Part shown: positions 6,012 to 59,423 of the stretch, in pieces
How the letters are laid out: the number at the start of each line of letters is the position of its first letter
How positions within the stretch are numbered: the stretch's first letter is position 1
Assembly: GCA_050084515.1 (NCBI GenBank)
Contig: CM114271.1
Location: 27,094,001-27,158,000 of the forward strand
Direction: 5' to 3'
Length of the DNA stretch: 64,000 bases
Origin: Blasia pusilla
Taxonomy: Eukaryota
Notes under the pieces: generated by a model
The model's database searches: none
What the model was told of the DNA's origin: nothing
Seen by the model: only the letters and a program-made list of their open reading frames with translations
Program-made: the position numbers and the translations under genes

Positions 6012-6960
6012 TGTCGTGCGCATACACATCGCTACACAACATACATCGTTGTCACCAAACACACACGCAAACACTCACGATCCCATGCTAACTCATGGCA
6101 TCCAAACAACGAGACAAGAAGTACTAAAATATCTCCAATAAAGTAAGATCCAATCTCTCTCTACACCATCTCATACCATAGCTCTCAAAAGTGTGCATTC
6201 TCTCTCATGTCAAACCAAACCCACTCTCCTGATGAGAGACCTGGGTTACACTCACAAGGCAAGGGACCATAACTCCGCCGCCTTATGCCAAGAGGTTCAA
6301 CAAAGAGAGAATGGTCTCTCAAGTTCTCTCTCCTTGAGGTATACCCATCCCCTCTCCCAAGCTCTCTCCATGGTAACCTATTCTCCCAAGTCACCTCCTT
6401 GGCTCTTGACCTAATGTAGGAGGTCAAGGGCCACTTACCAAAAATATAAAGTCGATCATATACTCAAAATGGTAATTACCTAAAATAGTAAGTTCCTCAA
6501 TATGGCTCCAAATGAGCCGAAACGAAGGGGAAACCTGCTCTCTCAAATTTCCCAGAACCTCAACAGGTCACCCTCAACCTACTGAGCATGTCCTCCACTA
6601 CTCATGTAGGCGCTCTACTACATCTCACCGATCTATCCTAAAAGACGTGACAATTGTCGTGCACATACACATCGCTGTCACCAAACACACACACAAACGC
6701 GCACGATCCCATCCTAACTCATGGCATCCAAACAAAGAGACAAGAAGTACTAAAATATCTCCAATCGCTCCCCTAGTTGGTGGTTAGGTCCCTCTAATTC
6801 CAGATAGCCATCTATCCCTACCTACCATGACATACATCTCTCGCACACTAAGAGCAAGAAAGGTCGGGTGCTCATGTGGCCCCATCGTTAGTCGCCTTCT
6901 TGTCATCCATATCACAAAAAAAGTCGGAATCGAAACGTACCTGTATCTCCTCTATGTACC
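6012..6960 (-). mobile_element. G1 gypsy family, copy a: 3'-terminal remnant (3' UTR + A-B-A terminal repeats)
   Basis: Repeat A at 6012-6139, B at 6140-6652 and A at 6655-6765, then PPT-like CTAGGGGAGCG on the minus strand and a 3' UTR. Nearly identical to 28909-29840. Confidence 0.85.
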
Positions 6961-9900: not shown

Positions 9901-11375
9901 TACGGCAGGGCCGGCACGACTAGCGAAGAGCTTCCGTGCAAATGTGGATTTAATTAATTTCGTGCGTATGTGGATTCGATTCATTTCGTGCGAATGAGAG
10001 CGACCCGACAAGACAAGACGCACACTAGGCACCGCGATGTTGAGACAAGCTCGATCGAGAGCTTACACAATTCACATGATTACCATGTCAGCGTGCTGAC
10101 AAATCTTCTTTCACGGTGTACCATTCAGAAACCAATGACGTCTTGGGCCTAAGAGCCCAACATCGGTATACCACATCCTCCTCCCGGCTACGCGGAATGA
10201 TTTTCCCGGATAAGGGTAACCCTCGAGTCTGATCTACCCTACCTGCAGGCAATTCCTGTGCTAGATACAAAGCGTAGGACATATGTAATCAGAACAGCCG
10301 TTTTAACGTAACACTGTGACCAACACCAGGAGGCGAGCCTGATAACCTCAACCCAAGCATGACAGTTTTCGGCGCACTCCGTCAATTTAACTCTACTGAC
10401 CAGGCAAAATCCCCATGTTAGGTACAAATTTACGGTGGAACAGAAGAACAAGCGACACACTTGCCACACAGAATATCTCCGGAGTATAGAACAGATTCGT
10501 ATGAAACGGTTACTCAAAACACTATCGGTTACCACATGAACCCATGCATCTTATCGCGGGTACGAACCCTAACAAACGATTGGACTACTAGTTTCTCAGA
10601 CCTGTGAAAATGAAAAGAAAATCTACCAAGTTCCATCAAATCGACTTGAGCGAGTCTAGAGAAAGAGCTCTAATCTACATAATTTCAACATGTCTAGATT
10701 GTCAGACAGACCATTCCAACTTCGTGCAGGCTGAACACGAACTTCCATCACTTGCACTTCCACGCCGCAACAGATCCATACAGAACCTGTGAAGTGACGA
10801 GAGTAACGATTCCCCGCACCAAACATCTCTACAACGACTAAGAACTCGAAGCAAATCAACATAATGCGGTCCATCTCAGAAAGATAAGAAACAATAATCA
10901 GGTCTAGATACCATAGATAAAACTTGCGACAAGTCCAATCGAAACGAAACACATCACATCTTAAGAAGACCATATCGATAACCTTGCTTGGAAATTTTAA
11001 ATAGAATCTTCTGAAGTTATGGCCTAAAAACCAAAACGATAGTTTCGCGATCCGTGCACATTTTTTGGACCTATACACTAGCCACTTCAAGGGATTGTAC
11101 AAACTAGAGCGCGACCCAAGGAAAGAAGAAATTCACATGAAACAGAGTTCGATTCTATTTGACCGCCCATCAGCAGACGGTAACATATCAAAGAGCACGG
11201 CCGAGAGAAAGAGAACCTTGCATGGCAAGGAGAATGGTGAACTATATACAGACAGGAGACAGTGCGATCTATGTACAGAAGATCAGCCCGATTCCATCAC
11301 ACTTTACATTTCTCCCATTCATCCTGTGTTTACTTGACCCACGTCTTGCAGAACGACTGCCTCGGCACACGGTGG

Positions 11376-11804
<429 letters not shown>

Positions 11805-15400: not shown

Positions 15401-16447
15401 TCTTGACCTGCTATAGAGGGTCAAGGGCCAGTTCCCAAAGTGAAAAGTCAACTTTACTCATAACAGAAATTTGTCCAAAATAGTAAATTTCCCTATATAG
15501 CTCTAAATGAGCGGAAACGAATGAGAAACTTGCTCTCTCAAGTTACTCGAGGCCTCAAGAGGTCATCCTCGACCTCCCGAGGCTGTCCTCCAATATTCTC
15601 AATGGCGCTATATTATAAACTTGTCGATCTATCCTAAAAGACGTGACAAAGCACTCATCCTTATATAAGCTACAAATTCCCTCTGCACTTTTATTTGAGC
15701 CAAACTCATTCTTCCAATGAGAGGCTTGGGTTACACACACAAGGCAAGGAGGACCATAGCTCCGCCGCCTCATGCCAAGAGGTTCAACAAAGAGAGAATG
15801 AGCTCTCAAGCTCTTTCTCTTGGAGGTATACCCCCTTCCCTCTCCCAAGCCCTATCCACGATCATCTATGCTCGCACGTCACCTCCTTGGCTCTTGACCT
15901 CTTGTAGTGGCTCAAGGGCCACTTCCCAAAGTAGAAAGTCAACTATAACAAAATGGTAACTTACCCAAAATTATAAGCTCCTCAATATAGCTCCAAATGA
16001 GCCGACATGAAGGGGAAAGCTGCTCTCTCATGTTTTGTGTGCCCTTAGCAGATCATCCTCGATCTCTTGAGGTTGTTCTCTAGTATCTTTGAAGGTACTC
16101 TACTAGATCTCGTTGATCTATTCCTAAAAGACATGACAGTTGTCGTGCGCATACACATCACTATGCAACATACATCGTTGTCACCGAATATACACACAAA
16201 CATACACAATCCTATGCTAACTCATGGAATATATACAACGAGACAAGAAGTACCAAAATATCTCCAATCGCCCCCCTAGTTGGTGGTTAGGTCCCTCTAA
16301 CTCTAGATAGCCATCTATCCTTACCTACCATGACATACATCTCTCACACACTAAGAGAAAATGGCTAGGTGCTCATGTGGCTCCATCGTTAGTCGCGTTC
16401 TTGTCATCCATGTCATAGACACAAGTCGAAATCTACAACTACCTACT

Positions 16448-16708
16448 CTATGTACATCTGGGGCACATCCATCGTCCCCGAGGAACCCTAGTGAGAGGTA
16501 GCGTCAGACATGCCATATACCACCCTCTCGAATATCCATCACAGACTAGCATAGTGGTTGCACCACGGGCAAAACCACACAACATACATTGCAACCTTGC
16601 AGGAACTACGGCTAAGCTTGGATCAACTGTATCGTCAATATTAGGAAGATGACATGACGCACAGTTACGCACATGGTCCTTCCAAACCCTACCATCGCAT
16701 CCCTCCAA
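16448..16708 (-). pseudogene. Integrase C-terminus with PHD finger (G1 copy b)
   Basis: CMLCG...MLVCDGYSRGWYMACLTLPLTRVPRGRWMCPRC has C4HC3 PHD spacing, with two ligands mutated to Tyr. Confidence 0.85.
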
Positions 16709-17186
16709 TAAGAGGACACCACTCTCAAGATGGTGCGCCCTACAATCACATCAAACGTCAAGGGTGTCGTCTTCTGAAAGTAGACACAGTCTCCCTGATG
16801 AAACCCCCGGATAGTAGGTAGATAACCATCTCACCGAATAGTTGCATACCTCAACATATCTCAATGCTAGGCAATTGCCATGTTCTCAAACGCCATGGGC
16901 ATCACTTTCCAAAATAACTCAACCCTCTCAGAACATACTCGCATCCATATATCAGGGTCATCAAGGTTCAACACCTCACCAACATCTCAACGAATGGCCG
17001 TAGGTAAACCCGGATCTCGGCCATAAAGTAGCAAGTACGGTGAGAAAGACGCTAAGGTTGCCTACGTGTTGAATCTGTATCCCATTGCCAATCATGGTAA
17101 CTGAAGGTCCCAATCTCCTAGGTGACCAATTTACAAGCCATAATTGCATAATCCACTCTTCACCGTCTGCACAACCCTCTCCGCTA

Positions 17187-19328
17187 TGTCACATATGAGT
17201 AGCCGATAGGCCGAGATCTATCGTGGATGGGGCGTAGGAGCCAACGGACTATCTTGAGTGTAACTTTATCCCACGATGTCAGATGAGGTTGAGGGTAGGT
17301 CCATTGTGTTAAGAATGTTGTTTCTCACAACTTTCCTATTGAGGTCTTTCACAACCGGGTGACTTGTTGACCAGGTCACCCGCCCCTGGTAACATGTGGG
17401 CACATGTTACCAAGGGGATAACTATTTTTAGGGGAAGAGCCTTTTGGCTCTTCCCAACCCTATATAAGAGAGGAAGATGGCTTTCCTAAACCATCTTTCT
17501 CATGTTGGGCCGTTGGAGCACCTCTCTTGTATGTGTGTGAGATAGGACTAGCGTCCGGATTCCTTGATAGCACAGGGTGGACGAGGCTCGATATACCGAT
17601 GTAGATTGAGGAGTGGAGTTTTAGGCCGGGTGTGCCGTTTTTACTACTCTTTATTTTTATATGAGAAAGATGCTAGGGGGCTAGTGGGAATTCATTGTTT
17701 GCAGGTAGGCAAGCGAGTTGCCTCGGTGGGAAGCCCTGGAGACGCAAGTTGGAATTTTTGTTGGTCATTTTATGTTCGGAAGGCCGTGGGCGGAAGGGAA
17801 GCGCTGCCCGTTTTTCAAAAATTTATTTGGTGCAGGTTGACGGGGGACAGCAGCCGAGTGTAGTGTGCGGTGGGGCGTCGGGTGTACTCGAGTGAGGGTG
17901 TCAAGAGAGAGAAGAAAAGAGCAAGTTTGGGTTTTGCAGCCGCCGTGGGGTTGTCAAGTAAAGGTGGCTAGCTAGGGTTAGGTTGCATAGATGGGCACAT
18001 ACGGCTTCCCCCCCCTCTCACCTCCCAAATTTTGGGGAGGCCACGGGCCCCACATTTAGGCGTGATGGAGTAGAGGTGACTTTATGAGGTTGAGAGTGAA
18101 CGTGGTAGGGGTCTGGCCAAGTTTCAAAGTTGCAATTTTTGTGGAGTAGTAGGAGGGATTTGGGCGAGCGTGGATGGGATTTGAGACGAGAGTTGGCAGT
18201 CATTACGGGTTGATTGGGGGCGGAAGTACTTGACGTTAGCATAGGTGAGCTAGTGAGGAGTGTGGGAGACTCTCGGGGAGTCTGAGTGCTTGAGCGGGTG
18301 AGACAGGGTTGTCATCACGGCGTTCTTCCAGGGTCGGAAGAACGGGTAGTGCGAGAAGTAGTAGTGGTGTGACACGAAGTGGAGTGAGATACCAAGGGGT
18401 TACCAGTGAGGAGCTACCTCGACATCCATCTGTGGCTGGATCGTGATCACTAGACACTGGGTCTGGTGACGAGATCGTAGACGGAGACACTATCACTTGG
18501 CTAGAGATGGACGACATGGGCCATCAAGGCATGCATTGTTTCTCGGGTGCAGTGGGCACCATTGACTTAGATGATTTTATTCAAGAGTTCGACACGTGGT
18601 GCGACTTCCAAGAGACACGGACCCCGACATGGTTCAACCCTTTCATGGCATGGAAGGGGTTGTTCCATCACTTGGAGGGTCCTCCGATGGATGACTACAT
18701 GGAGTTTCGATCACTATATTCAGTAGAGATCGATGCTTGGAGGATGTATTGGATTCCAGGGTATGTGTCCACTAGTGATCTCGAGGCATATGATGGGATC
18801 GTAAGAGGATAGAGACCCACACCATCAACCCGGAGACTAGATGGAGAGGAGGGTAGTGAGACAAGCAATGTGGCAGAGACCTCTGGTGGTAGAGGGCCAC
18901 CCAGCTTCAGTCCCACAGTGGAGTTCTTCCAAAAATTGAGGAAGAGCTACCAGGGCATACGCACCGACAAGCTGGAGAGTCTACAGGATTTTGAACGACG
19001 ATCGGGTGATCATTGCTACATATGGAGTGATCATATGGAGTGAGTGAGGTTGATCATTGCTACATATGGAGTGATTGAGGCGTAGTCAGTCCAGTATTGG
19101 TACGGGGTTCTGGACCAAGAACTACGGAGGAGAGTCCGAGATGCGGTGCTGATTCACACAGCGAAGCCCACATTGAAAGGTAATCTTTGAGTTGTGTGAT
19201 CTCCATGTATATGTATGAGTTGATTTCTGTACATGTGTGGATCTATCCATGTGTGGGGAAGATCAATGTTATGCGATGTAGATGTGACCAGCGATGTATG
19301 TTGTGTAGCGATATGTATGCGCACGATA
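17187..19328 (+). mobile_element. Internally deleted 2.1-kb G1-related retroelement (gag fragment only) inserted in the integrase of copy b
   Basis: Starts TGTCAC and ends ...TGTATGCGCACGATA (A-type terminus). Flanked by GCTA/GTTA, a 4-bp TSD with one transition. The flanks rejoin to match the uninterrupted integrase at ~30590-30610. ORF 18507-18812 (FSGAVGTIDLDDFIQEF..WCD...HLEGPPMDDY) is homologous to the gag at 53623. Confidence 0.8.
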
Positions 19329-21989
19329 GTTAGTCCATCCGCCTCAAGATGATTTCATGAAGTGGTACGGTGGTCGATCAACGCTTGATCACACAAGGCC
19401 TGAAACTCCCCGCGAAACTCTGTACTCTGGTCTATCAACAACTCACTTGGTGCATCGTACTAACTGAGCACTCGATCTAAGAAAGCATATGCTACTCCCT
19501 TACTCGCTTTGTCAGGCAATGCTACCAACTCTATCCACTTTGAGAAGTGCTCGACCATCATCAACACATAATGACAATGGCGCTCCGTCAATGGTAAAGG
19601 TCCTGCAAAATCCAACCTCCATCTTTAACCTAAATCCATGATCGGAAGTGGATGCAATTGTGGAGACGGAGCATTGAATGATGTTCAGAACCGATCACAC
19701 ACCATGCACCTAATATAAACTACTGATCGTCAATGTGCATGCCTCGCCACCGATACTGTATCTGGAGCAAGCTATACATTCGCTTCAAAATGATCCAACT
19801 CCTCGTGGGCATGACGCACCAAACGTACTCCCTGTGAAGAATGAGGCACTACAGGTACTCTACCATCCTCCCAAACTCACAACACATATGTCCCCTCCCA
19901 CCAAAACCGTTTGGCTCGCTGTAGGATCCAATCCTGCTCTCTAGCACTCATTGTGCTCGGGACGCTGCCACTACCCAAGTACTCCAAGACTACTATATCC
20001 TCGTGAATGTCTCGGCCACCTGTTGTCTCCTCACAAGCCTTTGGATCTAAGGACTCTCCATCAAACCTCGCCATCGAAGTCTCAGCAATCTGGCTCTCCA
20101 TAGCCAGTAAGCCCAAATAGGCTGAAGTGTGCCATCTTGGCACCAACTCCTCATCACTCTCTCCATGCCAACGAGCTCTAATTGCATCTCGCTGACTCGG
20201 GCATGGGTTACGGCTCAAACCATCTCCATCCTGGTTGAGCGTCCTAGGTCTATGCACCACCTGGAAATCATACTCGTGCAACAAAAGAGCCCATCTCGCA
20301 ATCTTCCTTGTAAGTTTGTCGGACTCCATCAACCACTTAATGGCTGGTGATCAGTAATAATGGTAAAGGAATTTCTGAATAAGTAACACTTGAAATTGCG
20401 ACAACCCACACTGTAGCCAAACACTCACCCTCATACGAGCTATACTTTGCCTCTACAGCGTTGTTTGAGCAACTAGCGTAAGCCACCACAAACTCTCTAC
20501 CCTCATCATCATGCTGAGTGAGCACAGCTCCAAACCCCAACATGCTCTAATCGGTATGTAATTGGAAAGGACGCCCCCTGATCGGTCTCCTCAATATGGG
20601 CGCGGACGTCAATTTGTTCTTGAGTAGTTGAAATGCTCTCTCTTCCTCATCCCCCTAGTGCCACTCTTGATCCACCTTGGTCAGCAAGATTAGCGACTTT
20701 GCAAGCAAACTGAAACCCTTGACGTACCGTTGATAGAAGTTTGCCAATCCCATGAATGTACGAACTCAACTTACATTTGTAGGGTGTGGAATGCGAGAAA
20801 TAGCCTCTACCTTTGTCTGCTGCACACCAAGGCTACCTGGGTATGTGGTATGACCCAGATCCTCAATCAGGTTGTAGAAGAACTTGCACTTGCATGGAAG
20901 TAGCTTCAGCCCATGTAACAGCAATCGTCCAAATAACTCCTCTAGATGTTGCTCATGCTCCTCAACCGTGACGCTAAAGACTACGATATCATCAATATAA
21001 CATCTAGCAAAATCCAGTCCTGCCAAGATCCTATCCATGACCATGTGAAACTCAGTCGGGGCGTTCTTTAACCCAAATGTTAAGAACCGCCATTGGTACA
21101 AGCAATCCTTCATGTGAGTATTGATGCCCCAAAATGTCGACGTCTACCTATCCTCTAATTTGATAGGCATCTGATGGTATCCGTCTCAAAGATCCAACAA
21201 ACTAAAGACCTTTGCATGCCCAATAACATCTAAGATCTCCTCAGGGGTGGGCATGGCATGCTTGTTGGACTTCGTTTGTCGATTGATAGGTCGATAACCT
21301 CCACACATCCGCCTATCCGTCCAGTTGCAATGCACATCCTTCTTGGCGTGCATGACAGTGGCGGATGCATACTTTCCATGCGACATCTCCACTAGTCTTG
21401 CTCCAACCAAGTCCTGGCTCCTACTCTGAATCAAAGCCCTCTCCATGTCACTTTACCTGTAGGATCATCGGAAGATTGGCGTGTAGCTCGACAACTCAAT
21501 GCGGATCCTTGGACCCTTCATCATTCACAAATCATGCATACTAAATGCAAAAAAACTCCTACAACTCCTAAGGAACTAATGTATCCAACGCCGCTCTCCT
21601 CCTATCAACTTAGGGCCAATATTTGACTCCCAAATCTCCAGTGTGACTACGGTAGGACTCTCGGACGCGGGTATTGGTGGTTGCTATGGTGCAACCCCAT
21701 CTCAGACAACAACACTCGATTGCTCCTTTGCAACCAACAGCAAAATATGATCTCATCCACATGTAGTACCCAAAACCACGCTTGATGTTGTGGATGCCAT
21801 CTCTCAATGTACCTGCAAAACATCCCAAGAAGTCCAAGGATGTCTCTCGTGATCATCTTTGGTGTGTCAATCTCCTCGAGTCTTGCCCACACCCACTTCC
21901 TCAACCGTCTCGGTAGGCATGGGGCTCACTAACGCAAAAACTGTGATCTGTTGCATCCTCAAATGACGCTACTCAACTACTCCTAAGCT

Positions 21990-22920
21990 GAAAATCCATG
22001 TCAAGCAGTTCAGGTCCATCGCTTGACCCAAGACATGATGTCGTGATGCCTTTGATAGTGACGGTACTGCCATCACTCCTGTGGGGAACCCCATTTCCCG
22101 CTCTTGCTCATCAGCGTTAGGCTATACGTGGTCATCCCAAACCAAGCCACGTCCGGCCTCCTTGAATGCATAGGAAGTGGCAAAAATCACAAACATGAGA
22201 AAGGCTGCATGTGGCATGCCAATCGTGTTGACCACAGTCAATGGTGATTGATCATCGTCTCTCAGTGCGTGTGATCAACGATCTAGATCTAGAATAGAAT
22301 CCGCCAACAAATTGGAGGGGCACTCCACTCTTGCATAAGCCCTCTAAAACACCCCATATGGCACCAAGTTGGTCCACCAAAGACGCGGGCAATGTGCTCG
22401 TGAACCTACACTCGTCGCATCGAACAACACTGCTAGGCCAATCCATGCGCGCACATGATGTGCACTCATCACCACTCGGGACCTTAAATTGCCCAAATTC
22501 TGCACATTCTTTAGAATGTATGTTGGAGAACGAGGCTCATGCTCTTGCAAGTGTCGCAAGATCTGCATCATCCCCAAACAACTTGGATCTAGTGTCAACC
22601 AACCCGCTACCTCGACTAGCACTTGACTGGCCTTGACACTGCCAACTAGCAATGACCAAATCTATGGTCCCTACCTGCTCCAAGTCTTGCGTCCCCAATA
22701 ATGAAATGTCTCTTGGTAGGAAACTCTAGTACCTCCGAACGGCGGACGCAGACAACAAGTCGAGAAATCAGAGGCGTAACTGCGCCACATGATGAAGTGA
22801 AGCGCACCTAGCAACATCATCAATCTAAACGTACAAGTATTGTTGCACGCTCACTATTGCCTACAAAACAATAGCTAAGCCAGTGTTGATCGCTCTAAAG
22901 AGATCCAACACGCAAATACT
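21990..22920 (-). pseudogene. C5 cytosine DNA methyltransferase domain (DNMT3-like) in G1 copy b
   Basis: Motifs in order: ICVLDLFRAI (I), GTIDLVIASWQCQGQS (IV), TYILKNV (VI), DATSVGSRAHCPRLWWTNL (VIII). Collinear with copy d. Confidence 0.85.
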
Positions 22921-25400
22921 CTCCTCTAGGATGCGCCACATAATTGGGGTGGTATCCAAAGAGATCATAGTAGCACTCCTTGATACCTTGAGTTCCTCTG
23001 ACCTGTCACGCTTTGGTACGAATGCCTGACTCCACGTCATCTGTCTGTCATCTGTCAAGCGTTGGAGCTCCTCACTTGAGACCCACAATGGCACCTCTCC
23101 TCCACGGAATGATGCGACTACCACAACACTCCTCTCCCTAGAAGTGTCAGGCGCGGGGATATCCTTTGCATGGACATGCTCCTCAATCAAGTCACAAGAC
23201 CACGTGATGGCATTATTAAATGTGGCTAATATCGCCATCTCTCCTGGCCGTGGCTTGATCACTCCACCTGTGAATCGAACGGATAATGAGCTAAGTCGCC
23301 CATTACCTGATTACTGTCCTGGTCTATAGGACATTGACTCCTCCTAGTAATCCAAGGAAAATCCCATCAGGTACAAAAATGCTCCACCAACCAAGACGTC
23401 GTAGGACTCGACATCGGTCACTATCGCCTTGGCTCGCACCACGGACTCCTCTATAGGATGTCTTGGGAGAATCCTCACCACGACCTCATGTCGGATAATA
23501 AACTGTATGGTACTTGCTCCACCCAAGGATGTCTGTATCCGGAATGGACATCGACCCTCGTCGGGCCTAAGCCCGTGAATGCCGCTTTCCTTAACATCAT
23601 GGGTTGCCCTCCTAAATCTAACAAGACACGCAGTGGACAAAACACTCTACCTCTTGGACTAACCATATGGAATACCTCTCCCCGATTATCCAGCAACACA
23701 ACACCTGGAGCAACTATGGCACGCTCTATCGCGGGTCTAGCCAACATCTCCGCAATCCTAGCAGCTGCAACCTGCCATGAGTCTGAGGTGGACGGACCGA
23801 GCATCAACTCCAAGGGCAGGTCCATCACCTCCTTTGCAATCATCTATGAACGTGATGCAAGAACACCATCTCCACGCTCACATAGCGTAGCGCCAATCCG
23901 AAAACCCCGGCGGGCGTACCTCCCAACGTCATAACATTGGAAACAGAAAATAGCAGAGCACGGTATACCATCGTGGCCTCCCCCAACATCGTACTTGACA
24001 CATGCTCCTCCCGAGCATCAGCAATAGGAATTGTCGCACTTGCGTCTCCCATCGCCCTCCGTGCCTGCACACCAACAACATCAAGTCTCCGAGAATTCTG
24101 ATCAAGACTCATCGATGGGGTCCTCATTGCCTCAGACAACGTGAAAGATTGAGGAAGCCTGGTCTATTTCTTGGCTTCCCCTCTTTGTGGATCCAACTCT
24201 ACAGCGGCTCCATGTGTAACAACAATGGCTACCTCCAACTGGACAATCGCGCACATCCAGCCACGATCCAGTTGGGGTCCTCCATATCTCCGGCTGCTCT
24301 ATAAGACGTCGATGCCACGATCCGGCATCGGATAACCTCAATGCCATAGCGACAATCTGCTATATCTGAGCCGTCAGCCTAGCCTCACGCCCGACGTCTC
24401 CCTCGATGCGTCTAGGTGGAAAAACTCTAGCTCCTCCACGGGAAACTCCACCACCCCCTCACGCAACTTTAACTCCTTATCCCCCAACAATAGGACTTGG
24501 TGCATGACCTCTAGTCCTACCTAGACCAACAACTCGCTTTGGTGCCCTCTCTAGCCCTCGGTCCGGACGTAATTCACGGTGGAGGCTGAAACACCTGGCG
24601 CGTGTCTCACTGTACCTCTAACAATCATCACACCGATAAACTCCTGGTGTGGCACATCTCCTCCTCCATGCTGAGTCATGCGTCCATAACCTTGACAGAT
24701 GCAATCACGTTGGTGATGGGCTCAACCACATGACCAACAAATAATTGCAGGTGGCTGCTACTAAAGCCGCATATGAAGGCGCAAGTCTCTGTGGCATGGC
24801 CTCCCAGTATGATCCATGAGCTTGTGGTGCCACATACCTCTCTGGAAATCCATATTGCTGCACTAGTGGTGCAGAAAATCGTGACTGCTCTCGCCCAGAA
24901 CCCGTGGTGGCTACACTCTCCTCCGCCATGTTCCGCTCAATGTCCTTGGCAGTGGTAAAAACATCTCTTAACGTAGGTGAGATGTGCATAAGAATCACCC
25001 CATCCCTCACCCGTTTCCGCAGGTTTTGCTCCAGCATCGCATACCATGATTGGATAGCCTGGGACTCTATCATCCTTAGAATGACGCAAATCAACTAGCC
25101 CTAGCGAGTGTAGGCCTCACAAAAACTCTCACCCAGGCGCCTCTAGAAGTCGTGGATGCTCCGCATCTTCTCCGTCCGTACCCCCTACTAGCTCGTCCGC
25201 AACTCTGCAAAGAACTCAATCACAAGGTTGAACCTAAGACGAACCTGACTGGACGGTGCAACTGGTCCAATGCGAGCTACCCCTCCTAAAACATCACTGG
25301 TGGAAGAGGAAGAAGCCTCTCTGACTCCTCTTCCTCATCTAGAAACGGCTTCGTCCATGACACATAGTGTGGGTCATAGTAGAGTCTCCATGCCTCAATC

Positions 25401-28599: not shown

Positions 28600-28667
28600 A
28601 CTACCCCACACAACAAGCAGTGAGGAATCTCGAGCGAAATGGGGATGATGTAGAAGAATGCTGACAT

Positions 28668-37324
<8,657 letters not shown>

Positions 37325-49747: not shown

Positions 49748-52374
49748 TGGACCCTTAAAATTTGCACCGCAATCCAAAGTTCCAACTTTCATTCCAACTA
49801 TAGGAGCTTCGATGGTAAATCGCTCGCGGGATTGCAACACCTCCTTGGACGTGGCTTGCACCACTACTCTACTTGATTGATTTATCACACTCGGGGAAGG
49901 CAAAAAGGGCCGACGTAGCTCGAGCACTTAATCTTCTTAGACTTACCACACCCCGGGAAGGCAAAAGTGGACCGCACAGCTCAAGTACTCAAGCAATCAT
50001 GTGGCAATGGACTCTCAACTTCTGCTTCCTATCTAGCTTGCTTCCCTTTGCCCTCTCTCTCGTTGCCTTGTTGCACTTTCGTCTCCGCCTTGCTCTCCTT
50101 ACCTTCACATTTTCGCTCAGATGTCTCTTATTGCCTGACCCTCATACCAGTCAGCCCGTCTGGTTCATACTCCCTCGCTCACACTCCCTTGCTCAATCCC
50201 CCCCCCAATCCGTAGCTAAACCCTTCTTTGCTCGCGTGCCATGAGCACGCGATGTCATATGCCACGTAGGGTAATGAAAATTTGGAAGCCCTATTTTTCT
50301 CATTTTTTCTCATCTAAGTTCATATGTACCTTATTTCTCATTAGTTTAGGACTTCACATGTTTAGTCATTTTTCATTTCTGACACTATTGAGTCATATAA
50401 ATTTTTAGTATGACTACACACAAGACTGACTAGTTACTAAGTCATTTCAAATATGACTCTGCCATATCCTAAGATTTCTCTATGACTCAGTCATAATTTT
50501 ATATGACTAAAAAATTATTATTAAATGGGATGATATGAATGCTATCCAACTAGCAGACATTCTAGCCATATGTTTGGGTCATGAAGAACCTCAGTCATTT
50601 TAGTACTAGTCATAAAAACCACTTTTTTCTTCTAGTGATCTCTTGGGCATATATGTGGGAGAACTCATAGTAATCGTCCATAGGCACCCCCTCTAAATGC
50701 TGGAACATACCGTTCTATGTTGTGAACGGGTTGAAATCTTTGAAGTTTCTAACCCGCTGTGAGTCATACCAACTCCTAAACTCCGCAATGAAGTCGTGTA
50801 GCTCTATAGTGTGTATAGCACTTGAAAACCTACGCGGTCCTCTATCCCAGTCGTCCATCTCGTATGTCCAATTGGTAGGACCATTCAATGTGTGCGGTAA
50901 ATCACTAACACACTCCTCTACACTCCCTCCCTTGTCTAAAGATGACAAAGAAGGAGGTTGCGCTCGTCCCTCACATGAGACCCTTGGAACCTCGCGCCAC
51001 TCCGCGTAAACCCTCTAGAGCTACTCTAAGGTCTACCACCTCGACTATCAAAGTCCCAAAAGGACGCCGTGATGACCCTCGTATCCCTCTCACGCAGTCA
51101 TTCTCAATCTCGCAAGGAGTCACTCAATCACTCAAACTAAACATGCGGCACTCAATCTACACCCTCTCATTGAGACGTGTATTGTGCAGCAACAAGCGGC
51201 CTGATACGACAAATCAGCTTTTGTCTTATCATCTCTTTGACACACATACCCTCAACTGCGAACATCCCACACAGGTCTATGTCCCTTAAACCCATACATC
51301 AACGATGCTCTCAGCATCTGCACGAAACCCAATATCCCCAAATAAGTACCCAATACCCTGAGATTCCTAACACGTGCAAGGCAAAATAATAGAATGGGTT
51401 ACCTAAACAAATGTCAATTTCCCCTCAGCAATTGCAAACCTCGACCCCAACTAGGTCGTGAAGAAAACTCCTCAAAGCAGCTAGTTGTACTCTTCTTCAA
51501 CTGACGATGCTCAAATCTCCTTAATATGCGGTGCGGGTCAGCCGGACGGTGCAGCACAGAATGGTACAATCGTAATGACACTCGGGAATAGGTGCAGCAC
51601 TGAACGGCGTACCCTCCTCAATCAACAAAACACAATCAATTCCCCTAATGATGGTGCGGCTCTACGATCGAGATAGTGCGGCGTGTCACGACTGTTAGGA
51701 TAGATTGGTGGGATCTAGCAGAGCGTCTTCACGAGTAGTGGAGGATAGGCCCAGGAGGTCGAGAATGATTTTTTAAGGCCCCGGGAAACCTGAGAGAGCA
51801 GGTTTCCCCTTCGTTTCGGTTCATTTGGAGCCATCTAGAGAAACTTACTATTTCGAGTAAGTTTCCATGTTGGGGATCATTGACTTTCTATTTTTGGTAA
51901 GTGGCCCTTGACCTCCTACATCAGGTCAAGAGCCAAGGAGGAGACTTGGGAGGATAGGTTACTATGGAGAGGGGAGGGGTATACCTCAAGGCGAGAGAGC
52001 TTGAGAGCTCATTATCTCTTTGTTGAACCTCTTGGCATGAGGCGGCGGAGCTATGGTCCCTTGCCTTGTGAGTGTAACCCAAGCCTCTCATTAGGAGAGT
52101 GGATTTGGTTTGACATGAGAGAGAGTGCACACCTTCGAGAGCTATGGTGTGAGATAGTGTAGAGAGAGATTGGATCTTACTTTACAAAGAGAGAATTGAT
52201 AGCTACAATACGGGAGCTTGCTGGAGTTTCGTTGTGTTTGCAGATGGTGCGCGATTTGGAGCTGCGAGCAGGAAGTTATGGCCAATTTTAGGGTAAAAAT
52301 CAAAACCCTAAAGCAGCAGCCGCCATTGGCGGTGCCGTCATCGTCGACCGCCGTCACTGTCGCCGTCGTCCAGG

Positions 52375-52815
52375 CTGTCAACCCATCGCCAGGACGTCAA
52401 CCCATCGCCAAGATGTCAACCCGTCGTCCAGGCCGTCAACCTGTCGCCAGGACGTCAACCCGTTGGCCAAGACGTCAACCCGTCGCCAGGACGTCAACCC
52501 GTCGCCAGGACGTCAACCCGTCGCCAGGACGTCAACCCGTCGCCAGGACGTCAACCCGTCGCCAGGCTGTCAACCCGTCGTCCAGGTCGTCAACCCGTCC
52601 CCAGGACGTCAACTTGTCGTCCAGGCCATCAACCCGTCGCCAAGACGTCAACCCATCGCCAAGTCGTCCACGTGTCGCCAGGCCATCCACCCGTCGCCAG
52701 GCCGTCAACTCGTCGTCAGGCCGTCAACTCATCGCCGAGGCCGTCAACCCGTCGCCAGGCCGTCAACCCTTCCCTAGGACGTCAACCCTTCGCGAGGCCC
52801 TTCAACCCGTCAACT
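52375..52815 (+). repeat. 19-bp tandem array (CGTCAACCCGTCGCCAGGA)n in the 5' UTR of G1 copy d
   Basis: About 20 or more head-to-tail imperfect units with no spacers. Confidence 0.95.
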
Positions 52816-55800
52816 GGCCCATTACCTGTCAAGCTGCCGTCTACCGACTGGAGTACTATTCTGGACGACGTGTGACCCAGTGATTTATGGGGTCCGAGCT
52901 TTCTAGCCGCATTATTATGTTTTGAGTTGGTAGCGGCTCCACGAAGATCGAGGACCGTGACGTGACGCCCGTAGCCGCAACGCCCGTAGTCGCAACGTGC
53001 CGCCAATTGCAGCGCCGTGCCGCTCGTGGCCGCACCACACCGTCTCGATTGCAGAGCCGCATCGTCATTGTGGAGCACATTGTGTTTTGCTGGTTTGAGG
53101 AGTTTGGCTTCACGAAGGAGTTGGGGTCGAGGTTTGCAGCTTGGTGCGGAGCGATTCAACATTTATTGAGGTTACCCATTCTGGTCCTTTACCCTGCACG
53201 TGTGGGGGATTGTGGGATTTGGGTTGTTGATTTGGAGATATTAGGTTTTGTGGATGCTAAGAGCATCATTTATGTATGTGGTTTAGGGGACATAGACCTG
53301 TGTGGGATGTCCGGAGTTGAGGGTAGGTTGTCGATGAGATGATAGCCTTGTCAATTTGCCGCACCACGCCGCTTGTTGCCGCACGTTACACGACTCGGGG
53401 AAAGAGAGTGTAGATCGAGTGCCGCATGTTTGGGATGAGTGATTGAGGGATTACTCACGAGGTTGAGAGTGATCAAGTGAGAGGGGCACGAGGGTCATCA
53501 CGGCGTCCGTTTGGGACTTTGAGAGGCGAGTTGGTGAACCCGAGAGTAGCTCTAGAGGTTTTACGCGGAGTGGCGTAAGGTTCCGAGGGTCTCCACGTGA
53601 GGGACCACCTCGACCTCCTTCTATGTCATCGTCAGACGAGGGGGAGGGTGTAGAGGAGTTTGTGAGCACATCGCCACACATTGTGAGTGGTCCTACCAGT
53701 TGGGCGTACGAGATGGACGACCGGGGTAGAGGACCGTGTAGGTTTTCAGGTGCAATAGGCACGATTGAGTTGCACAATTTCATAGCAGAGTTTAGGTGTT
53801 GGTGCGACTCCCATCGGGCCACAAACTCTAGAGAGTTCAATACGTTTACAACATGGAATGGTATGTTCGAGCATTTAGAGGGGGCGCCCATGGACGATTA
53901 CCATGAGTTCTCTCAGAGATATGCACGTGAGATCGAGGCGTGGAGGCTCGACTATGACCCACATTATGTGTCATGGACGGAGCCATTCCCAGATGAGGAG
54001 GAGGAGTTAGGAGAGGCTACTTCCTCTTCCACTAGTGACATTTTAGGAGGGATCACTCCCACAGGAGCAGTTGCACCGTCTAGTCGGGTTTGTCCCAGGT
54101 TCAACCATGTGGTTGAGTTCTTTGCTGAGTTGAGGGCGAACTACAAAGGGGTACGGATGGAGAAGTTGCGGAACATCCATGACTTCCAGAGGCACCCGGG
54201 TGAGAGTTTGCGTGAGGCTTACACTTGCTTGCGTCGGTTGATCAACGTCACTCAGGGGGTGACAGAGGCTCAGGCTATCCAATCATGGTACGCGATGCTA
54301 GACCGGACCCTGCGGACACAGGTGCGGGAGGGGGTGCTTCTTATGAACACCTCCCCTACGTTGAGAGATATTTTTAGGACCGCCGAGAACATTGAGTGCA
54401 AAATGGCGGAGGAGAGCGTAGCCACCATGGGTTATGGGCGAGCGATCCACGATTATCGCACCACCACGTGCGGCAAAGAACGTGACTCGAGATAGGTCAA
54501 CTGTGGCACCACGAGCTCAGGGAGGATACCGGGAGGCCGTGCCACAGAGACCTACGCCTTCATATGCGGCTCAACAGCAGCCGCCTCCTATTACTTGTTG
54601 GTCATGTGGTGGAGCCCATCATCAGCACGATTGCACTCGTCAGGGTCATAGACGTGGGCCTCAGCATGGAGGAGGAGATGGTGCTGCACCAGGAGGTTAT
54701 CAGTGTGACTATTGTCAGAGGTATGGTCATACACGCGCAAGGTGTTTCAGTTTACATCCTGAGTTACGTCCGGACCGAGGGCCAGAGAGGGCACCAGAGC
54801 GAGTAGCCGATCCGGGTGGGCCTCGAGATCGTGGACTAGGTGGTTCCGTTGGGGGACGAGGAGCTGGAGTTGCCCGACAGGGTGGTGGAGCAGTCCGTGG
54901 AGGAGGAAGAGTACCACCACCTATACGCGCGGAGGGAGACGCCAAACGTGAGGCTGGGATGGCTGCTCAGATACAGCAGCTACAGGAGCAGATTGCCGCT
55001 ATGGCATTGAGGTTACCCGATGCCGGATCCGTGGCATCGACATCATATGGAGCAGCCAGAGATCTGGAGGATTCTGGTTGGATGTGCGGGGTTGCCCAGA
55101 TGGAAGCCGCCGCAGTTGTGACACCTAGAGCAGCCGTAGAGTTGGATCCACAGCTAGGGGAAGCCAGAAAACAAAATAGGCTTCCTCAGTCTTTCACGTT
55201 GTCTGAAGCGATGAGGACCCCATCGATGGGTCCTCATCAAAGTTCCTTGAGAGTTGGTGATGTTTTTGGTGTGCAAGCACGGAGGGCAATGGGAGAAGCG
55301 AGTGGGACGACTCCTATTGTTGATGCTCAGGAGGGGCATATGTCGAGCACGTTGTTGGGGGCGGCCACCGTTGTGTACCGCACTCCTTTATTTTCTGCAT
55401 CCGATGTTTATGACGTTGGGGGGTACGCCTGCCGAGGCTTTTAGGCTGGCCGCTTTGCTATGTGAGCGCGGAGTTGGAGTTTCTACATCACGTTCAGAGG
55501 TGATTGCAGAGGAAGTGATGGACCTGCCCTTGGAGCGGATGCTCGGACCGTCCACATCAAATTCATGGCAGGCTGCAGCTGCTAGGATGGCGGAGATGCC
55601 CGCTAGACTCGCGATAGAGCATGCCATGGCTTCTCTTGGTGTTGTGTTGCTGGATAACCGAGGAGATATCTTCCAGTTGGGGAGTCATGGAGGTAGAGCT
55701 TTTAGTCCGCACCGCGTCTTGTTGGATTCAGCAGCGCAACCCCTGATGTTGGGGAAAGTGTCATTCAGAGGATTGGGCTTGACGAGAGCCGATGTGGAGC

Positions 55801-56435
55801 GTTGTCCATTCCGGATACAAACATCCTTCGGTGGAGCAAGTACCACACAGTATATCATCCGACAAGAGGTCGTGGTGAGGATTTTCCAGGGACATCCTAC
55901 AGATGAGTCCGTGGTGCGCGCCAAGGCGATAGTGACTGATGCAGAGTCCTACGACGTCTTGGTTGGTGGAGCAGTGTTATACCCGATGGGGTTTTCCCTG
56001 GATCATTGGGAGGAGTCAGTGTCCTACAAATCAAGATGGCAGTCCGGTGATGGGCACCTAAGCTCATTACCCGTTCGATTCACAGGTGCAGTGATCGAGC
56101 AACGGCCAGGAGAGATGGAAACCTTAGCAGCATTTAGCAGTGCCATCACTTGGCCTAGTGATTTGATTGAGGGACACGTCTATGCAGAGGATACTCCCAT
56201 TCCTGACATTTCTATGGAGAGGTGTTTTATGGTAGCTGCATCATTCCGTGGAGGAGAGGTGCCGTTGTGGGGCTCGACTGAGGAGCTTTGACGATTGGCA
56301 CATGAGCACGTGCAGACCGCGTGGAGCGAGGCGTTTGCACCGGAGCGTGACAGGTCTGAGGAACCCGAGGTAGCTGGGAGTGCTACGATGACACCCTTGG
56401 ATACCACACCCATTGTGTGTTGTACCCCGGAGGAG

Positions 56436-57395
56436 GGTATTCAAGTGTTAGATCTCTTTGGAGGGATTAGCACCGGGTTAGCTGCTATTTTGCAAGCAGG
56501 AGTGCGAGTACAGCAATACCTGTATGTGGAGAGTGATGATGTTGCGAGGCGCGTCTCACTACGACATGTGGCGAACTTACGCCTACGTTTTCTCGACTTA
56601 TTGTGTGCGTCCGCAGTATAGGGGTACCATAGTTCCCTACCGAGGGATATTTCGTTGTTGGGGGCGCAAGACTTAGAGCGGGTAGGGACCATTGATTTGG
56701 TCATTGCCGGTTGGCCATGTCACGGCCAATCGAGTGTTGGACGAGGCAACGGGTTGGTTGACACTCGGTCCATGTTGTTTTGGGAGATGTTGAGGGTCTT
56801 ACGGAAATTGCAAGAGCACCAGTCTCGTTCTCCAACCTATATTCTGGAGAATGTGCCGATCTTAGGAGACTCCAGGTCACGGGTGGTGACGAGTGCTCAT
56901 CAGGTGCATGCCTAGATCGGCCCAGCAGTGTTCTACGATGCGGCGAGTGTAGGTTCTAGAGCCCATCGCCCGCATCTATGGTGGACCAACTTGGTCCCCC
57001 ATGCGGTGTTATGGAGGGCGTATGCGAGATTGGAGCGCCCCTCCCATTTGTTTGTGGATTCCATTCTGGATCCAGGTCGTCGATCATAGGTAGTGAGGCA
57101 CGATGATCGACCACTGTTGACTGTGGTCAACACAATAGGCAGGCGCCGCGGGAGGCTTGCCAACGTTTGTGAGTTTTCCCACTTCCTATGCATACAAGGA
57201 GGCCGGTCCTGGCTTGGTTTGGGATGACCAAGTTCAGAAGTTGGTGGAGCCCAACGCCGACGAGAGAGAGAGAGCGAGCGATGGGATTTGCCATAGGAGT
57301 GACAGTAGTACCATCAGTGTCAAAGGCATCACGACGCCATGTCTTGGGTCATGCGATGGACCTGAACTTCTTGACATGGATCCTTAGCTTGGGAG
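56436..57395 (+). pseudogene. C5 cytosine DNA methyltransferase domain (DNMT3-like) embedded in gypsy pol
   Basis: Motifs in canonical order: I IQVLDLFGGIS, II YLYVE, IV IDLVIAGWPCHGQS (catalytic PC), V SMLFWEMLRVL, VI YILENV, VIII DAASVGSRAHRPHLWWTNL, IX ERER-AMGF, X RRHVLGHAM. Motifs I-VIII are in the same frame as the upstream protease, with a few premature stops; frameshifts follow. Confidence 0.92.
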
Positions 57396-59423
57396 TGGCT
57401 GAGCAGCGTCGTATGAGATCGCGACAGATCAGAGCGGTTGCGTTGGTGAGCCCAATGCCTACCGAGATGGTGGAGGCAGTGGCAAGGGGCGAGACCTACA
57501 AGCAAATCTACGCACCATGGGAGATCGGAAGAGATACCCTTGGACTTATTGGGATGTTTTGCACGTACGCAAGGAGATGATAGCCACAGCATCGAGCATG
57601 GTTTCGGGCACTGCACGTGGAGGAGATCAGAGTTTGCAGTTGGCTACAGGAGAGCGGCCGAGTGTTGTTGTTCGAGACAGGGTTGCACCATAGCAACCAC
57701 CGATACCCGCGCCGAAGAGTCCTACCGTAGTCACGATGGAGACTTGGGAGCCAAATATGGGCCCTAAGTTGACAGGAGGAGAGCGGCGCCGAATACATCA
57801 GTTCCTCAGGAGTTATAGGAGCTGCTTTGCATTTAGCATGGAGGATTTGGGTAGGCTGAAGGGACCAGGGATCCGCATTGAGTTGTCGAGTGATACGTCG
57901 ATCTTCCGACGACCCTACAGGTACAGTGATATGGAGAGGGCTCTGATTCAAAGTAGGAGCCAGGACTTGGTCGAAGCAAGACTATTGGAGATATCACATG
58001 GGGAGTATGCATCTGCCACAGTCATGCCCGCCAAGAAGGATGTGCATGGCAACTCGACGGACAGTCGGATGTGTGGGGATTACCGACCTATCAATCGGCA
58101 GACAAAGTCCGATAGGTATGCCATGCCCACCCCTGAGGAGATCTTTGATGCAATTGGTCACACAAAGGTCTTCAATTCATTGGATTTGCGAGCCGGATAC
58201 CATCAGTTGCCTATCAGATTGGAGGACAGGCAGAAGACGACATTTTGGGGCATCGATCCTCACGGGAAGGATTGTTTGTACCAGTGGCGGTTCTTACCAT
58301 TTGGGTTAAAGAACGCCCCGGCTGAGTTTCAGAGGGTTATGGATAGGATCTTGGCTCGTCTGGATTTTGCTAGTTGTTATATTGATGACATCGTAGTCTT
58401 TAGCGCCACGGTTGAGGAGCATGAGCGACATCTAGAGGAGGTGTTTCGACGATTGCAATTACATGGGCTAAAGCTACATCCAGGAAAATGCAAGTTCTTC
58501 TACGACCAGATTGAGTACTTGGGTCATATGATATACCCAAGGGGCCTTGGTGTTTAGCAGACGAAGGTAGAGGCTATCTCACGCATTCCACGCCCTACAG
58601 ATGTGAGCCGTGTTCACGCATTCATGGGATTGGGGAACTTCTATCGGCAATACCTCAAGGGATTCAGTTTGATTGCGAAGCCGCTGACCTTGCTGACCAA
58701 GGTGGATCACGAGTGGCACTGGGGGGATGAGCAGGAGAGAGCATTTCAGTTGCTCAAGGATAGGTTGGCGTCCGCGCCCATCTTGAGGAGACCGATAAGG
58801 GGGCGTCTTTTCTAGTTGCACACAAATTGGAGCATGTTAGGGCTTGGAGCGGTGCTCACCCAACATGATGATGAGGGTAGAGAGTTTGTGGTGGCTTACG
58901 CTAGCCGCTTGAACAACGCTGCAAAGGCGAATTGCAGCTCGTATGAGGGTGAGTGCTTGGCTGCGGTGTGGGCTGTGGCACATTTTAGGTGTTACTTATT
59001 CGGCAACCCCTTTACCATCATCACTGATCATCAACCACTGAAGTGGTTGATGAAGTCCGACAAGCTTATAGGGAAGCTTGCGAGATGGGCTCTGTTGTTG
59101 CAGGAGTTTGATTTTTAGGTGGTACATAGACCTAGGACGCTCAACCAGGATGCAGATGGGTTGAGTCGTAACCCATGCCCGAGTCAGCAAGATGCGACTG
59201 GAGCTCGATGGCATGGAGAGAGTGATGAGGAGTCAGTGTCAGGATGGTACGCGTCAGCCTATTTAGGCATGTTGGCTATGGAGAGCCAGAGTGTGAATCC
59301 TTTGATGGCAAGGTCTAGTGGAGAGTCCTTGGATCCCGAGGCCAGTGAGGACACGACAAGTGGTCGAGATATTCATGATGATGGAATAGTCTTGGATTAC
59401 CTTCGTACTGGCAGCGTTGCGAG

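Follow-up and report, generated by a model that had tools for sequence, protein, structure and literature searches.

Decayed copies of a Gypsy retrotransposon with a DNMT3-like methyltransferase domain in a liverwort genome

Retrotransposons that carry the very type of enzyme with which hosts silence them are a puzzle, as is the role of that enzyme for the element. We analyzed a 64,000-nt stretch of the Blasia pusilla genome (GenBank assembly GCA_050084515.1, contig CM114271.1, positions 27,094,001 to 27,158,000 of the forward strand; hereafter the window, whose numbering is used throughout), in which an initial annotation, made from the letters alone, had proposed a Ty3/gypsy element encoding a DNMT3-like cytosine methyltransferase (DNMT) domain between protease (PR) and reverse transcriptase (RT). 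In our reading, to which we assign a probability of about 0.85, this element, copy A, belongs to a bryophyte "Gypsy-DNMT3" retrotransposon lineage that has left several decayed copies in a liverwort genome and in which a UAG stop codon would set the expression of the enzyme and the enzyme would methylate DNA. Copies A and B in the window are inactive relics, of interest only as markers of their family. The window element itself is dead and of an already known kind; the extension to land plants, the layout with a leaky stop and the PHD-tailed integrase are modest additions that rest mainly on public relatives.

What kind of enzyme does copy A encode? Translation bore out the proposed order of C5-methyltransferase motifs, with I to VIII in the frame of the protease, a frame now broken by stops at 56289, 56619, 56913 and 57087. 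The catalytic motifs I, IV, VI, VIII, IX and X are all legible (Table 1), but PCQ has become PCH and, in motif VIII, RPR has become RPH; intact relatives keep the catalytic motifs (the PC cysteine, ENV and RxR). The Pfam family PF00145 matched the fragment 56622-56915 significantly (E = 3.3e-11, 43.6 bits against a cut-off of 22), and it scores 35-58 bits in relatives. Read through from 56400 to 57137 with X placed at the three TAG stops, the domain matched 32 distinct PDB sequences, 29 of which are DNMT3A, 3B or 3C (best E = 1.2e-10, DNMT3A); the other matches were to DRM from tobacco (two entries, best 5.9e-5) and to a single bacterial enzyme (3.4e-4). A family profile (alignment A2), built from seven family domains and two window pieces, aligned to solved structures in three blocks (motif I, motifs IV-VIII and motifs IX-X), with E-values of 6.4e-21 for DNMT3A, 4e-19 for DNMT3B, 2e-18 for DNMT3C, 3.6e-10 for DRM, 1e-6 for M.HhaI and 4e-6 for DNMT2; DNMT1 was not in the list. 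Judged only by these profile E-values against solved structures, the domain appears nearer to DNMT3 than to DRM, DNMT2 or bacterial enzymes. A cluster-level protein search returned generic PF00145 clusters only, the nearest being a streptophyte cluster of 57 members. Pfam called no family for copy A's gag, protease or C-terminal DNMT piece, so these three assignments in the window rest on alignment to relatives.

Copy A does not stand alone. A BLAST search of positions 53001-59600 against the window found two further copies, B and C, and one inverted copy. Copy B, whose parts were placed by reading frames, by tblastn of an intact relative's second open reading frame (ORF2 of locus L025) and by repeat comparison, runs collinear with copy A for 5507 nt (minus strand, 25400 down to 19956), the two being 80.5% identical and separated by 20 indels. 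Its methyltransferase domain occupies the same position, as the initial annotation had noticed, and its motif IV reads SWQCQGQS; the suggested consensus GWPCQGQS holds for the family, copy A itself having GWPCHGQS and the Q coming from relatives. In copy A the protease and motifs I-VIII share one frame, and in copy B motifs VI-X and RT share one frame; combined, the two therefore give an ancestral PR-DNMT-RT reading frame. Copy C lacks the domain, an internal deletion having taken gag, PR, DNMT and the 5' part of RT, and Pfam still recognizes its Integrase_H2C2 (6.4e-14), rve (1.4e-11) and PHD (4.9e-8) domains.

The intact arrangement can be read from relatives. Our scan of metagenome contigs matched 188 stretches, 80 of them confirmed as loci. 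One, L025, is intact: its ORF1 (976-5082, 1369 aa; aspartic protease and PF00145) is followed by one TAG and then, in the ORF1 frame, by ORF2 (5086-8226, 1047 aa), which encodes RVT_1, RNase H (RH), Integrase_H2C2, rve and a PHD finger (2.6e-10, ORF2 residues 990-1034). Locus L001 has this layout apart from one additional stop. From such relatives the layout of an intact element reads A1; ORF1 Gag(CCHC)-PR-DNMT; an in-frame UAG with CAR-YYA context; ORF2 RT-RH-DDE integrase-PHD; B1-A2-B2, where A and B are terminal repeat units. The methyltransferase is thus the C-terminal domain of ORF1, upstream of the in-frame stop that precedes RT, and the earlier suggestion that it is packaged with Pol becomes doubtful. 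The Ty3/gypsy assignment and the placing of the DNMT3-like domain between PR and RT both held up: the order PR-RT-RH-integrase is complete in L025, and the integrase of copy C has both the H2C2 and the DDE (rve) parts. Annotated plant proteins agree with this layout. The Marchantia protein P0007 aligns to the window from gag (53728) through the DNMT tail (57520), P0009 goes on into RT-RH, and annotated Marchantia and Calypogeia ORF1 proteins stop 37-40 residues past an HPW..W motif, which is the same boundary.

Nested transposons are densely packed in the window, and one could suppose that a host DNMT3 pseudogene or some other element had simply landed in a Gypsy copy. Such an artefact is barely conceivable, given that the junctions are identical in copy B and in the intact single ORFs of L025 and L001, that the Marchantia and Calypogeia proteins spanning gag to DNMT have the same junctions, and that the domain is in frame with the protease upstream and RT downstream.

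Has the domain been under selection? We computed dN/dS, the ratio of nonsynonymous to synonymous substitution rates, by the pairwise Nei-Gojobori method between copies A and B, excluding stop and gap codons. Motifs I-VIII gave 0.28 (bootstrap 95% interval 0.19-0.41; 236 codons) and motifs IX-X gave 0.40 (58 codons), and the values elsewhere were 0.31 in RT, 0.18 in RH, 0.53 in PR and 0.59 in gag; shifted into either wrong frame, these DNMT codons gave 0.78 and 1.26. The DNMT domain is constrained about as strongly as RT. Because both copies are dead, true constraint in the active lineage is stronger than these values suggest. With two diverged copies in the window, many collinear relatives and this ratio, the idea that the domain was propagated by retrotransposition and is not a one-off insertion was borne out: the methyltransferase is an integral, heritable and selected part of the element's ORF1.

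The six internal pol stops of copy A are all TAG, and a reassigned TAG codon was considered and rejected, because copy B carries TGA and TAA as well and because most of the TAGs pair as C>T decay predicts. Those at 56913, 58555 and 59116 face CAG or TGG in copy B and that at 58813 faces CAA; those at 56619 and 57087 pair with CGG and CAC. Across the full comparison of stops between the two copies, most stand opposite CAG, TGG or CGA, and the copies differ by 651 transitions and 362 transversions. This pairing, together with the excess of transitions, fits what would be expected from C>T decay of methylated DNA.

How might such an element express its enzyme? The stop between ORF1 and ORF2 could be compared in eight family members (A, B, L001, L003, L008, L025, L026 and L027): it is TAG in seven and TAA in one, is followed by CAR in seven, and has YYA next in six. 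L025 and L026 encode Q-L at this point instead of Q-P, yet they keep the CARYYA pattern, which hints at a constraint on the nucleotides themselves. From this context, read-through of the stop is probable. Most ribosomes would then stop at the UAG and make the enzyme at the level of Gag, as Gag-PR-DNMT, and a minority would read on to make RT-RH-integrase-PHD. Read-through would thereby set the ratio of Gag-PR-DNMT to full polyprotein and leave DNMT abundant, and the working model changes accordingly in that far more DNMT than RT or integrase is to be expected from a domain that precedes a probable leaky stop. Whether cut loose by the protease or left in the fusion, the enzyme may travel with the particle or the preintegration complex and methylate cytosines de novo on new cDNA or around the insertion site. 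Self-methylation of cDNA has been proposed for DIRS elements (PMC5890265).

The integrase of the family ends in a PHD finger (in copy C at 29848-29990 on the minus strand, Pfam 4.9e-8), which may read histone H3 tails and so guide the choice of insertion site. Chromoviruses have a chromodomain at this position. A bolder proposal, which we regard as doubtful at present, is that bryophyte Gypsy-DNMT3 could be a living land-plant lineage with a two-part epigenetic kit, a leaky-stop DNMT and a PHD-integrase, that picks chromatin by histone state and methylates its own cDNA or landing site; near-identical intact ORF1 copies occur in Marchantia polymorpha. If this is true, the element writes part of its host's methylome and is not only its target.

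The domain might instead have been kept for something other than DNA methylation, such as 5-methylcytosine formation in the genomic RNA, or a noncatalytic, DNA- or S-adenosylmethionine-binding role in particle assembly or targeting. The position in ORF1, beside Gag, puts it near packaged RNA, RNA methylation has been raised for LINE-borne DNMTs (PMC5890265), and the Klebsormidium domain showed no DNA methylation in a yeast assay (PMC5890265). The authors call that last result inconclusive, human DNMT3B having failed in the same assay (PMC5890265). Intact relatives retain every catalytic motif of a DNA C5-methyltransferase, and the nearest solved structures are the DNA enzymes DNMT3A, 3B and 3C, at about 1e-20, the tRNA enzyme DNMT2 reaching only 4e-6. 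A role outside DNA methylation is accordingly rather unlikely in our view, and methylation of DNA by the ORF1 enzyme is the function we prefer.

How widely is the family distributed, and in what hosts? A word-indexed search of longer proteins yielded 27 relatives at E <= 1e-3 among 3214 scored candidates, including Calypogeia fissa (65% identity), 13 Marchantia polymorpha entries (49-67%), Closterium (39%), Sphagnum troendelagicum and S. fallax; those of the same architecture in M. polymorpha, Calypogeia and Sphagnum are annotated as hypothetical proteins. Eighteen members at >= 90% identity make up one Marchantia cluster, whose ORF1s of ~1281 aa lie on chromosomes 1, 2, 4, 5 and V. An exhaustive HMMER search produced 2448 hits at E <= 1e-3, of which 483 reached <= 1e-10 and 53 reached <= 1e-30. 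Proteins 1000-3400 aa long are frequent among them; ten of these, looked up individually, comprise a Scenedesmus "pol", a Closterium protein and otherwise metagenomic sequences. A profile search recovered two Klebsormidium proteins, KFL_013780020 (E = 9.5e-103, 31% identity) and KFL_014710010, identity to Klebsormidium being 31-32% overall.

The only clear host gene in the window is a complete, single-exon ATG8 coding sequence (11379-11765, minus strand). Its residues 1-119 are identical, 119 of 119, to those of M. polymorpha, M. paleacea and Riccia fluitans, with differences confined to the cleaved tail; identity is 97.6% over 125 residues to Calypogeia and 88.9% to Sphagnum. ATG8 had been put forward as the route to the host, and it points to an embryophyte, a liverwort, probably of the Marchantiopsida and distinct from each of the species compared. 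Because the host is a liverwort, the Gypsy-DNMT3 system is present in a land plant. The suggested extension to land plants stands to that degree. The element is not a new system but a decayed representative of a family that public bryophyte annotations contain in abundance. Finding Gypsy-DNMT3 in liverworts and mosses moves the question of the enzyme's role to Marchantia, a land plant that can be transformed and for which good genetics and methylome data are available. As a separate observation, the ATG8 sequence has an observed/expected CpG ratio of 1.40, against 0.60 for the whole window. Set among many transposons, it may represent either a retrogene or an intronless paralogue that still functions.

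We placed the domain in a quick IQ-TREE phylogeny of 63 DNMT domains, comprising 23 named rows (22 from other organisms and the window) and 40 metagenomic rows hand-picked from 262 domain hits. A 23-row bryophyte clade takes in the window; 15 of its rows are liverwort (the window included), 2 moss and 6 metagenomic (support 99 by the Shimodaira-Hasegawa-like approximate likelihood ratio test, SH-aLRT). The window lies outside a 12-row Marchantia clade, itself supported at SH-aLRT 100. Klebsormidium and the metagenomic sequences akin to it make up a clade of their own in this unrooted tree, on a branch of 0.93. That distance, the identity of only 31-32% between the domains and the known repeated capture of DNMTs by retrotransposons (PMC5890265; bioRxiv 10.64898/2026.05.21.726589) would suit a history in which a liverwort or bryophyte Gypsy element took up a host DNMT3 separately and its likeness to the Klebsormidium element, KnitGypsy-Dnmt3, is convergent. 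We nevertheless find such convergence improbable. Both lineages hold the domain in the same slot, where it directly follows the protease and forms the C-terminal end of ORF1, both have the same unusual A-coding-B-A-B repeats, and the motif signature of the window family (GWPCQG, ENV, SRAHRxRxWWTN, ERERAMGF) is common to the Klebsormidium proteins; Closterium, Scenedesmus and metagenomic polyproteins form further branches, whose placement between the two clades the unrooted tree does not fix. The domains of the two lineages are clearly homologous, by the family profile's E-value of 9.5e-103 to KFL_013780020 and the shared domain order, and common descent of the elements is perhaps the likelier account. 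The Klebsormidium-type clade, too, ends its ORF1 shortly after the domain, about 27 residues past motif X. Elsewhere the domain's position varies. In more distant clades the domain lies inside one long ORF, with several hundred to more than 1100 residues following it in near-complete ORFs. Loci L030, L036 and L050 have it inside a single ORF of 2100-3300 aa, and P0027 (JGI, 1991 aa) has it between RNase H and integrase. The varied positions in distant metagenomic and chlorophyte polyproteins therefore indicate that the module moved within Pol or was acquired more than once.

Several observations weigh against parts of this interpretation. Copy A is dead: its PR-DNMT part has four stops (TGA at 56289, TAG at 56619, 56913 and 57087) and frameshifts lie near 57150, 57262 and 57497, with a sum of +7 nt relative to copy B. 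Its substitutions in the PCQ and RPR motifs, and the SWQC and KNV that replace GWPC and ENV in copy B, lie in catalytic motifs, and the dN/dS of two dead copies blends selection before insertion with later neutral decay. An AlphaFold model from a shallow nine-row alignment was poor and reached a mean predicted local distance difference test score (pLDDT) of 51 and a predicted template modeling score of 0.50, with only the N-terminal Rossmann part above pLDDT 70. For read-through, two of the eight boundary stops have CCC instead of YYA, and L027 has TAG in place of CAR. For the kinship with Klebsormidium, the separate clade comes from a tree of transposable-element-type sequences only, without a canonical DNMT3, DRM or DNMT1 outgroup and with an arbitrary root. 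The yeast assay of the Klebsormidium domain, which gave no methylation and which its authors call inconclusive, bears on the step from domain to methylation.

The anatomy of copy A, together with that of the other copies (Table 1), was drawn from stop-to-stop ORFs on the plus strand between 53.4 and 59.5 kb, which correspond to gag, a CCHC region, a protease-like part, several short ORFs, RT and RNase H. Repeat-end alignment has its A1 beginning at the same point as the 5' repeat of copy C. Residues 9-546 of P0007 align to 53728-55441, in the gag region. Among relatives, L001 and P0131 have a Pfam zf-CCHC match, which copy A lacks. For the protease, Asp_protease_2 and gag-asp_proteas match relatives only, with no family on copy A; the active site reads LLDSAAQP here and LLDSGAQP in intact relatives (DSG>DSA), and copy B has CAA where the copy A protease ORF has its TGA (56289). 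Motifs IX-X are reached only past the frameshifts near 57150 and 57262, and tblastn of P0007, P0003 and P0009 changes frame within 57157..57580; the family tail motif HPW..WDV was found in this ORF1 tail region. Because the three frameshifts sum to +7 nt, RT lies one frame off its protease. Its RT-RH part, in which Pfam likewise called RT_RNaseH_2, carries TAG stops at 58555, 58813 and 59116, and by BLAST end points homology to the other copies stops at 59423, with different sequence beyond. An open frame able to yield the enzyme is absent in both window copies, copy B having more lesions than A.

The terminal repeats are split and are not two plain, equal long terminal repeats (LTRs): the 5' end carries A1 and the 3' end B1-A2-B2. 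The B1-A2-B2 end is seen in copy B, copy C and an isolated fragment (6012-6958), the A1-only 5' end in copies A and C, and the two A units of copy C are 93.3% identical over 507 nt. Metagenome locus L021 has the same repeats, with A at 1676-2017 and 10350-10691 and B at 10238-10350 and 10693-10805.

Rearranged pieces of the family also occur. The leader of copy A and the beginning of its gag (53089-53934) recur, inverted and 80% identical, at 51481-50637, just upstream of A1, and a gag-like ORF of the same family, in opposite orientation, sits at 18447-18812 (plus strand) in the 17187-19244 insertion of copy B. Nesting of fragments, or a tendency of the family to rearrange, could account for them. 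Long (CT)n/(GA)n microsatellites occupy 28607-28950 and 37183-37300, one of them adjoining the B2 end of copy C. Just past the break-off point of copy A, a 516-aa open ORF (59832-61382, minus strand) and its neighbors at 61481-62209 and 62474-63175 (minus strand) have no Pfam match, and the group (59832-63175) may belong to an unclassified mobile element. Elsewhere in the window are an unrelated Gypsy element (42448-47436, plus strand), whose RT and integrase are ~30% identical to L025 ORF2 and whose direct repeats (39307-39932 and 46809-47436) are 97.6% identical, and, from translation only, a Copia-type RT/RNase H (1494-3097, plus strand) and LINE-like RT fragments (34942-35673, 38816-39271 and 47409-48029, minus strand).

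Table 1. Features of the Gypsy-DNMT3 copies in the window, and ORF1/ORF2 boundary contexts of family members (positions in relatives are those of the relative)
Feature	Position	Strand	Remarks
Copy A, 5' terminal repeat A1	51684..52202	+	A unit only, without upstream B unit; 85% identical, inverted, to 6139-6652 and 29027-29539
Copy A, 19-nt tandem repeat array in leader between A1 and gag	52351..52850	+	repeat family D2, 9 copies; self-BLAST 52363-52819
Copy A, gag region	53473..55250	+	capsid-like part, then two C-X2-C-X4-H-X4-C knuckles; two frames, i.e. frameshifted
Copy A, aspartic protease region	55251..56291	+	ends at TGA 56289; alignment with L025, L001, Marchantia, Calypogeia and Klebsormidium ORF1
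Copy A, DNMT3-like C5 cytosine methyltransferase domain, whole	56400-57442	+	motifs I-X in normal, unpermuted order
Copy A, DNMT motifs I-VIII part	56400..57137	+	protease frame; TAG stops 56619, 56913, 57087; PF00145 and DNMT3A matches
Copy A, motif I	56457-56477	+	DLFGGISTG
Copy A, motif IV	56709-56732	+	GWPCHGQS
Copy A, motif VI	56847-56855	+	ENV
Copy A, motif VIII	56955-56990	+	SRAHRPHLWWTN
Copy A, DNMT C-terminal part (target recognition domain, motifs IX-X) and ORF1 tail	57157..57580	+	tblastn frame switches; copy B indels
Copy A, motif IX	57266-57289	+	ERERAMGF
Copy A, motif X	57332-57367	+	RRHVLGHAMDLN
Copy A, ORF1/ORF2 boundary stop, in-frame	57691..57699	+	TAG CAA CCA; matches type I read-through context UAG-CARYYA
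Copy A, RT (57694-58557), RNase H (58558-59118), integrase linker start	57694..59423	+	RVT_1 2.5e-32, RT_RNaseH 3.4e-33
Copy B, whole	15076..25400	-	gag, PR, DNMT, TAG, RT-RH-integrase, PHD region, 3' repeats
Copy B, DNMT	22956-21933	-	
Copy B, boundary TAG	21686-21684	-	
Copy B, ~2 kb inserted DNA within RT-RH-integrase	17187-19244	-	
Copy B, PHD region	17187-16451	-	
Copy B, 3' repeats	16444-15076	-	B1-A2(duplicated)-B2
Copy C, internally deleted derivative	28900..33256	-	89-91% identical to copy A in RT/RH (around 31226-32194)
Copy C, A1	33256-32750	-	
Copy C, partial RT, then RH, integrase, PHD finger	32194-29848	-	
Copy C, B1	29630-29525	-	repeat family D8
Copy C, A2	29532-29027	-	
Copy C, B2	29005-28900	-	repeat family D8
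Isolated 3' end of a further family member, no coding part	6012..6958	-	3' untranslated region-B1-A2-B2; 90.5% identical to 28910-29845; B units 6638-6743, 6012-6117
Boundary context, copy A	57691-57699	+	TAG CAA CCA
Boundary context, copy B	21686-21678	-	TAG CAA CCA
Boundary context, L001	4509-4517		TAG CAA CCA
Boundary context, L003			TAG CAA CCC
Boundary context, L008			TAA CAA CCC
Boundary context, L025	5083-5091		TAG CAG TTA
Boundary context, L026			TAG CAG TTA
Boundary context, L027			TAG TAG CCA

How does this family relate to known systems? DNMT-bearing Gypsy elements have been published for the charophyte alga Klebsormidium nitens (PMC5890265), and later works speak of "streptophytes (Gypsy-DNMT3)", citing that 2018 study (PMC12344493; bioRxiv 10.64898/2026.05.21.726589). 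In the full-text literature searched, Klebsormidium was the only printed streptophyte example, and we found no description of a bryophyte or land-plant Gypsy-DNMT3, although supplementary trees, outside that search, may include bryophyte sequences. No paper describing the land-plant family, the read-through layout or the PHD-integrase was found; a UAG-CARYYA boundary in LTR-type elements was not mentioned in the literature searched, nor was relevant literature found on PHD-tailed integrases in LTR elements.

KnitGypsy-Dnmt3 itself resembles the window family in its DNMT3-like domain within a polyprotein of Gypsy composition and in its A-coding-B-A-B repeats in place of plain LTRs (PMC5890265), repeats that we find in copy C and L021. 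In KFL_013780020, of this type, Pfam gives the order CCHC, aspartic protease, DNMT, and ORF1 ends after the DNMT. Purifying selection on the domain is likewise shared, with Ka/Ks < 0.2 there (PMC5890265) and 0.28 in the window. The "A-coding region-B-A-B" order has been described as a DIRS arrangement (de Mendoza et al. 2018, PMC5890265), and this repeat oddity is, besides domain order, the strongest link to KnitGypsy-Dnmt3. The question raised at the outset, whether the element matches a described family, is thus answered in part: domain position, ORF1 ending and repeats are those of KnitGypsy-Dnmt3, but that family is algal, with none in print for bryophytes among the works found. The hosts differ, a charophyte there and a liverwort in the window, and the DNMT domains fall in separate clades of the unrooted tree at their low identity. 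The TAG-CARYYA boundary and the PHD-tailed integrase are seen in the bryophyte clade; neither "readthrough" nor "PHD" appears in the main text of PMC5890265.

Canonical DNMT3 enzymes (animal DNMT3A, 3B and 3C; plant DNMT3 and DRM) provide the best matches among solved structures and share the motif VIII pattern R-x-R-x-(F/W)-W-x-N; motifs I-X of the window family stand in unpermuted order. Unlike them, the window family has no PWWP, ADD or other host-type companion domain on the DNMT polypeptide and is embedded in a retrotransposon polyprotein; its motif IV is GWPCQG, where DNMT3A has PCN, and its motif order is not rearranged as it is in DRM. SymbioDIRS-Dnmt3 of Symbiodinium also carries a DNMT3-like domain in an A-coding-B-A-B retrotransposon, but it is a DIRS element with a tyrosine recombinase and no DDE integrase (PMC5890265). 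The Symbiodinium domains methylated CG de novo in yeast, and the authors judged the Gypsy and DIRS acquisitions of DNMT to be independent (PMC5890265).

EpiLTRs and chromoviruses (bioRxiv 10.64898/2026.05.21.726589) are similar in being LTR elements that add chromatin modules, a DNMT or a histone reader on the integrase, to Pol. EpiLTR DNMTs are described as sister to DNMT4 and share the 3' end of pol with a DAM domain and a chromodomain (bioRxiv 10.64898/2026.05.21.726589), whereas the DNMT of the window family is DNMT3-like and lies in ORF1, and its reader module is a PHD finger. The boundary TAG CAA CCA or TAG CAG TTA, finally, fits the tobamovirus-type (type I) read-through signal UAG-CARYYA (PMC5382211). 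That signal is known from replicase genes of plant RNA viruses (PMC5382211), and its use in the window family is suggested by sequence likeness alone.

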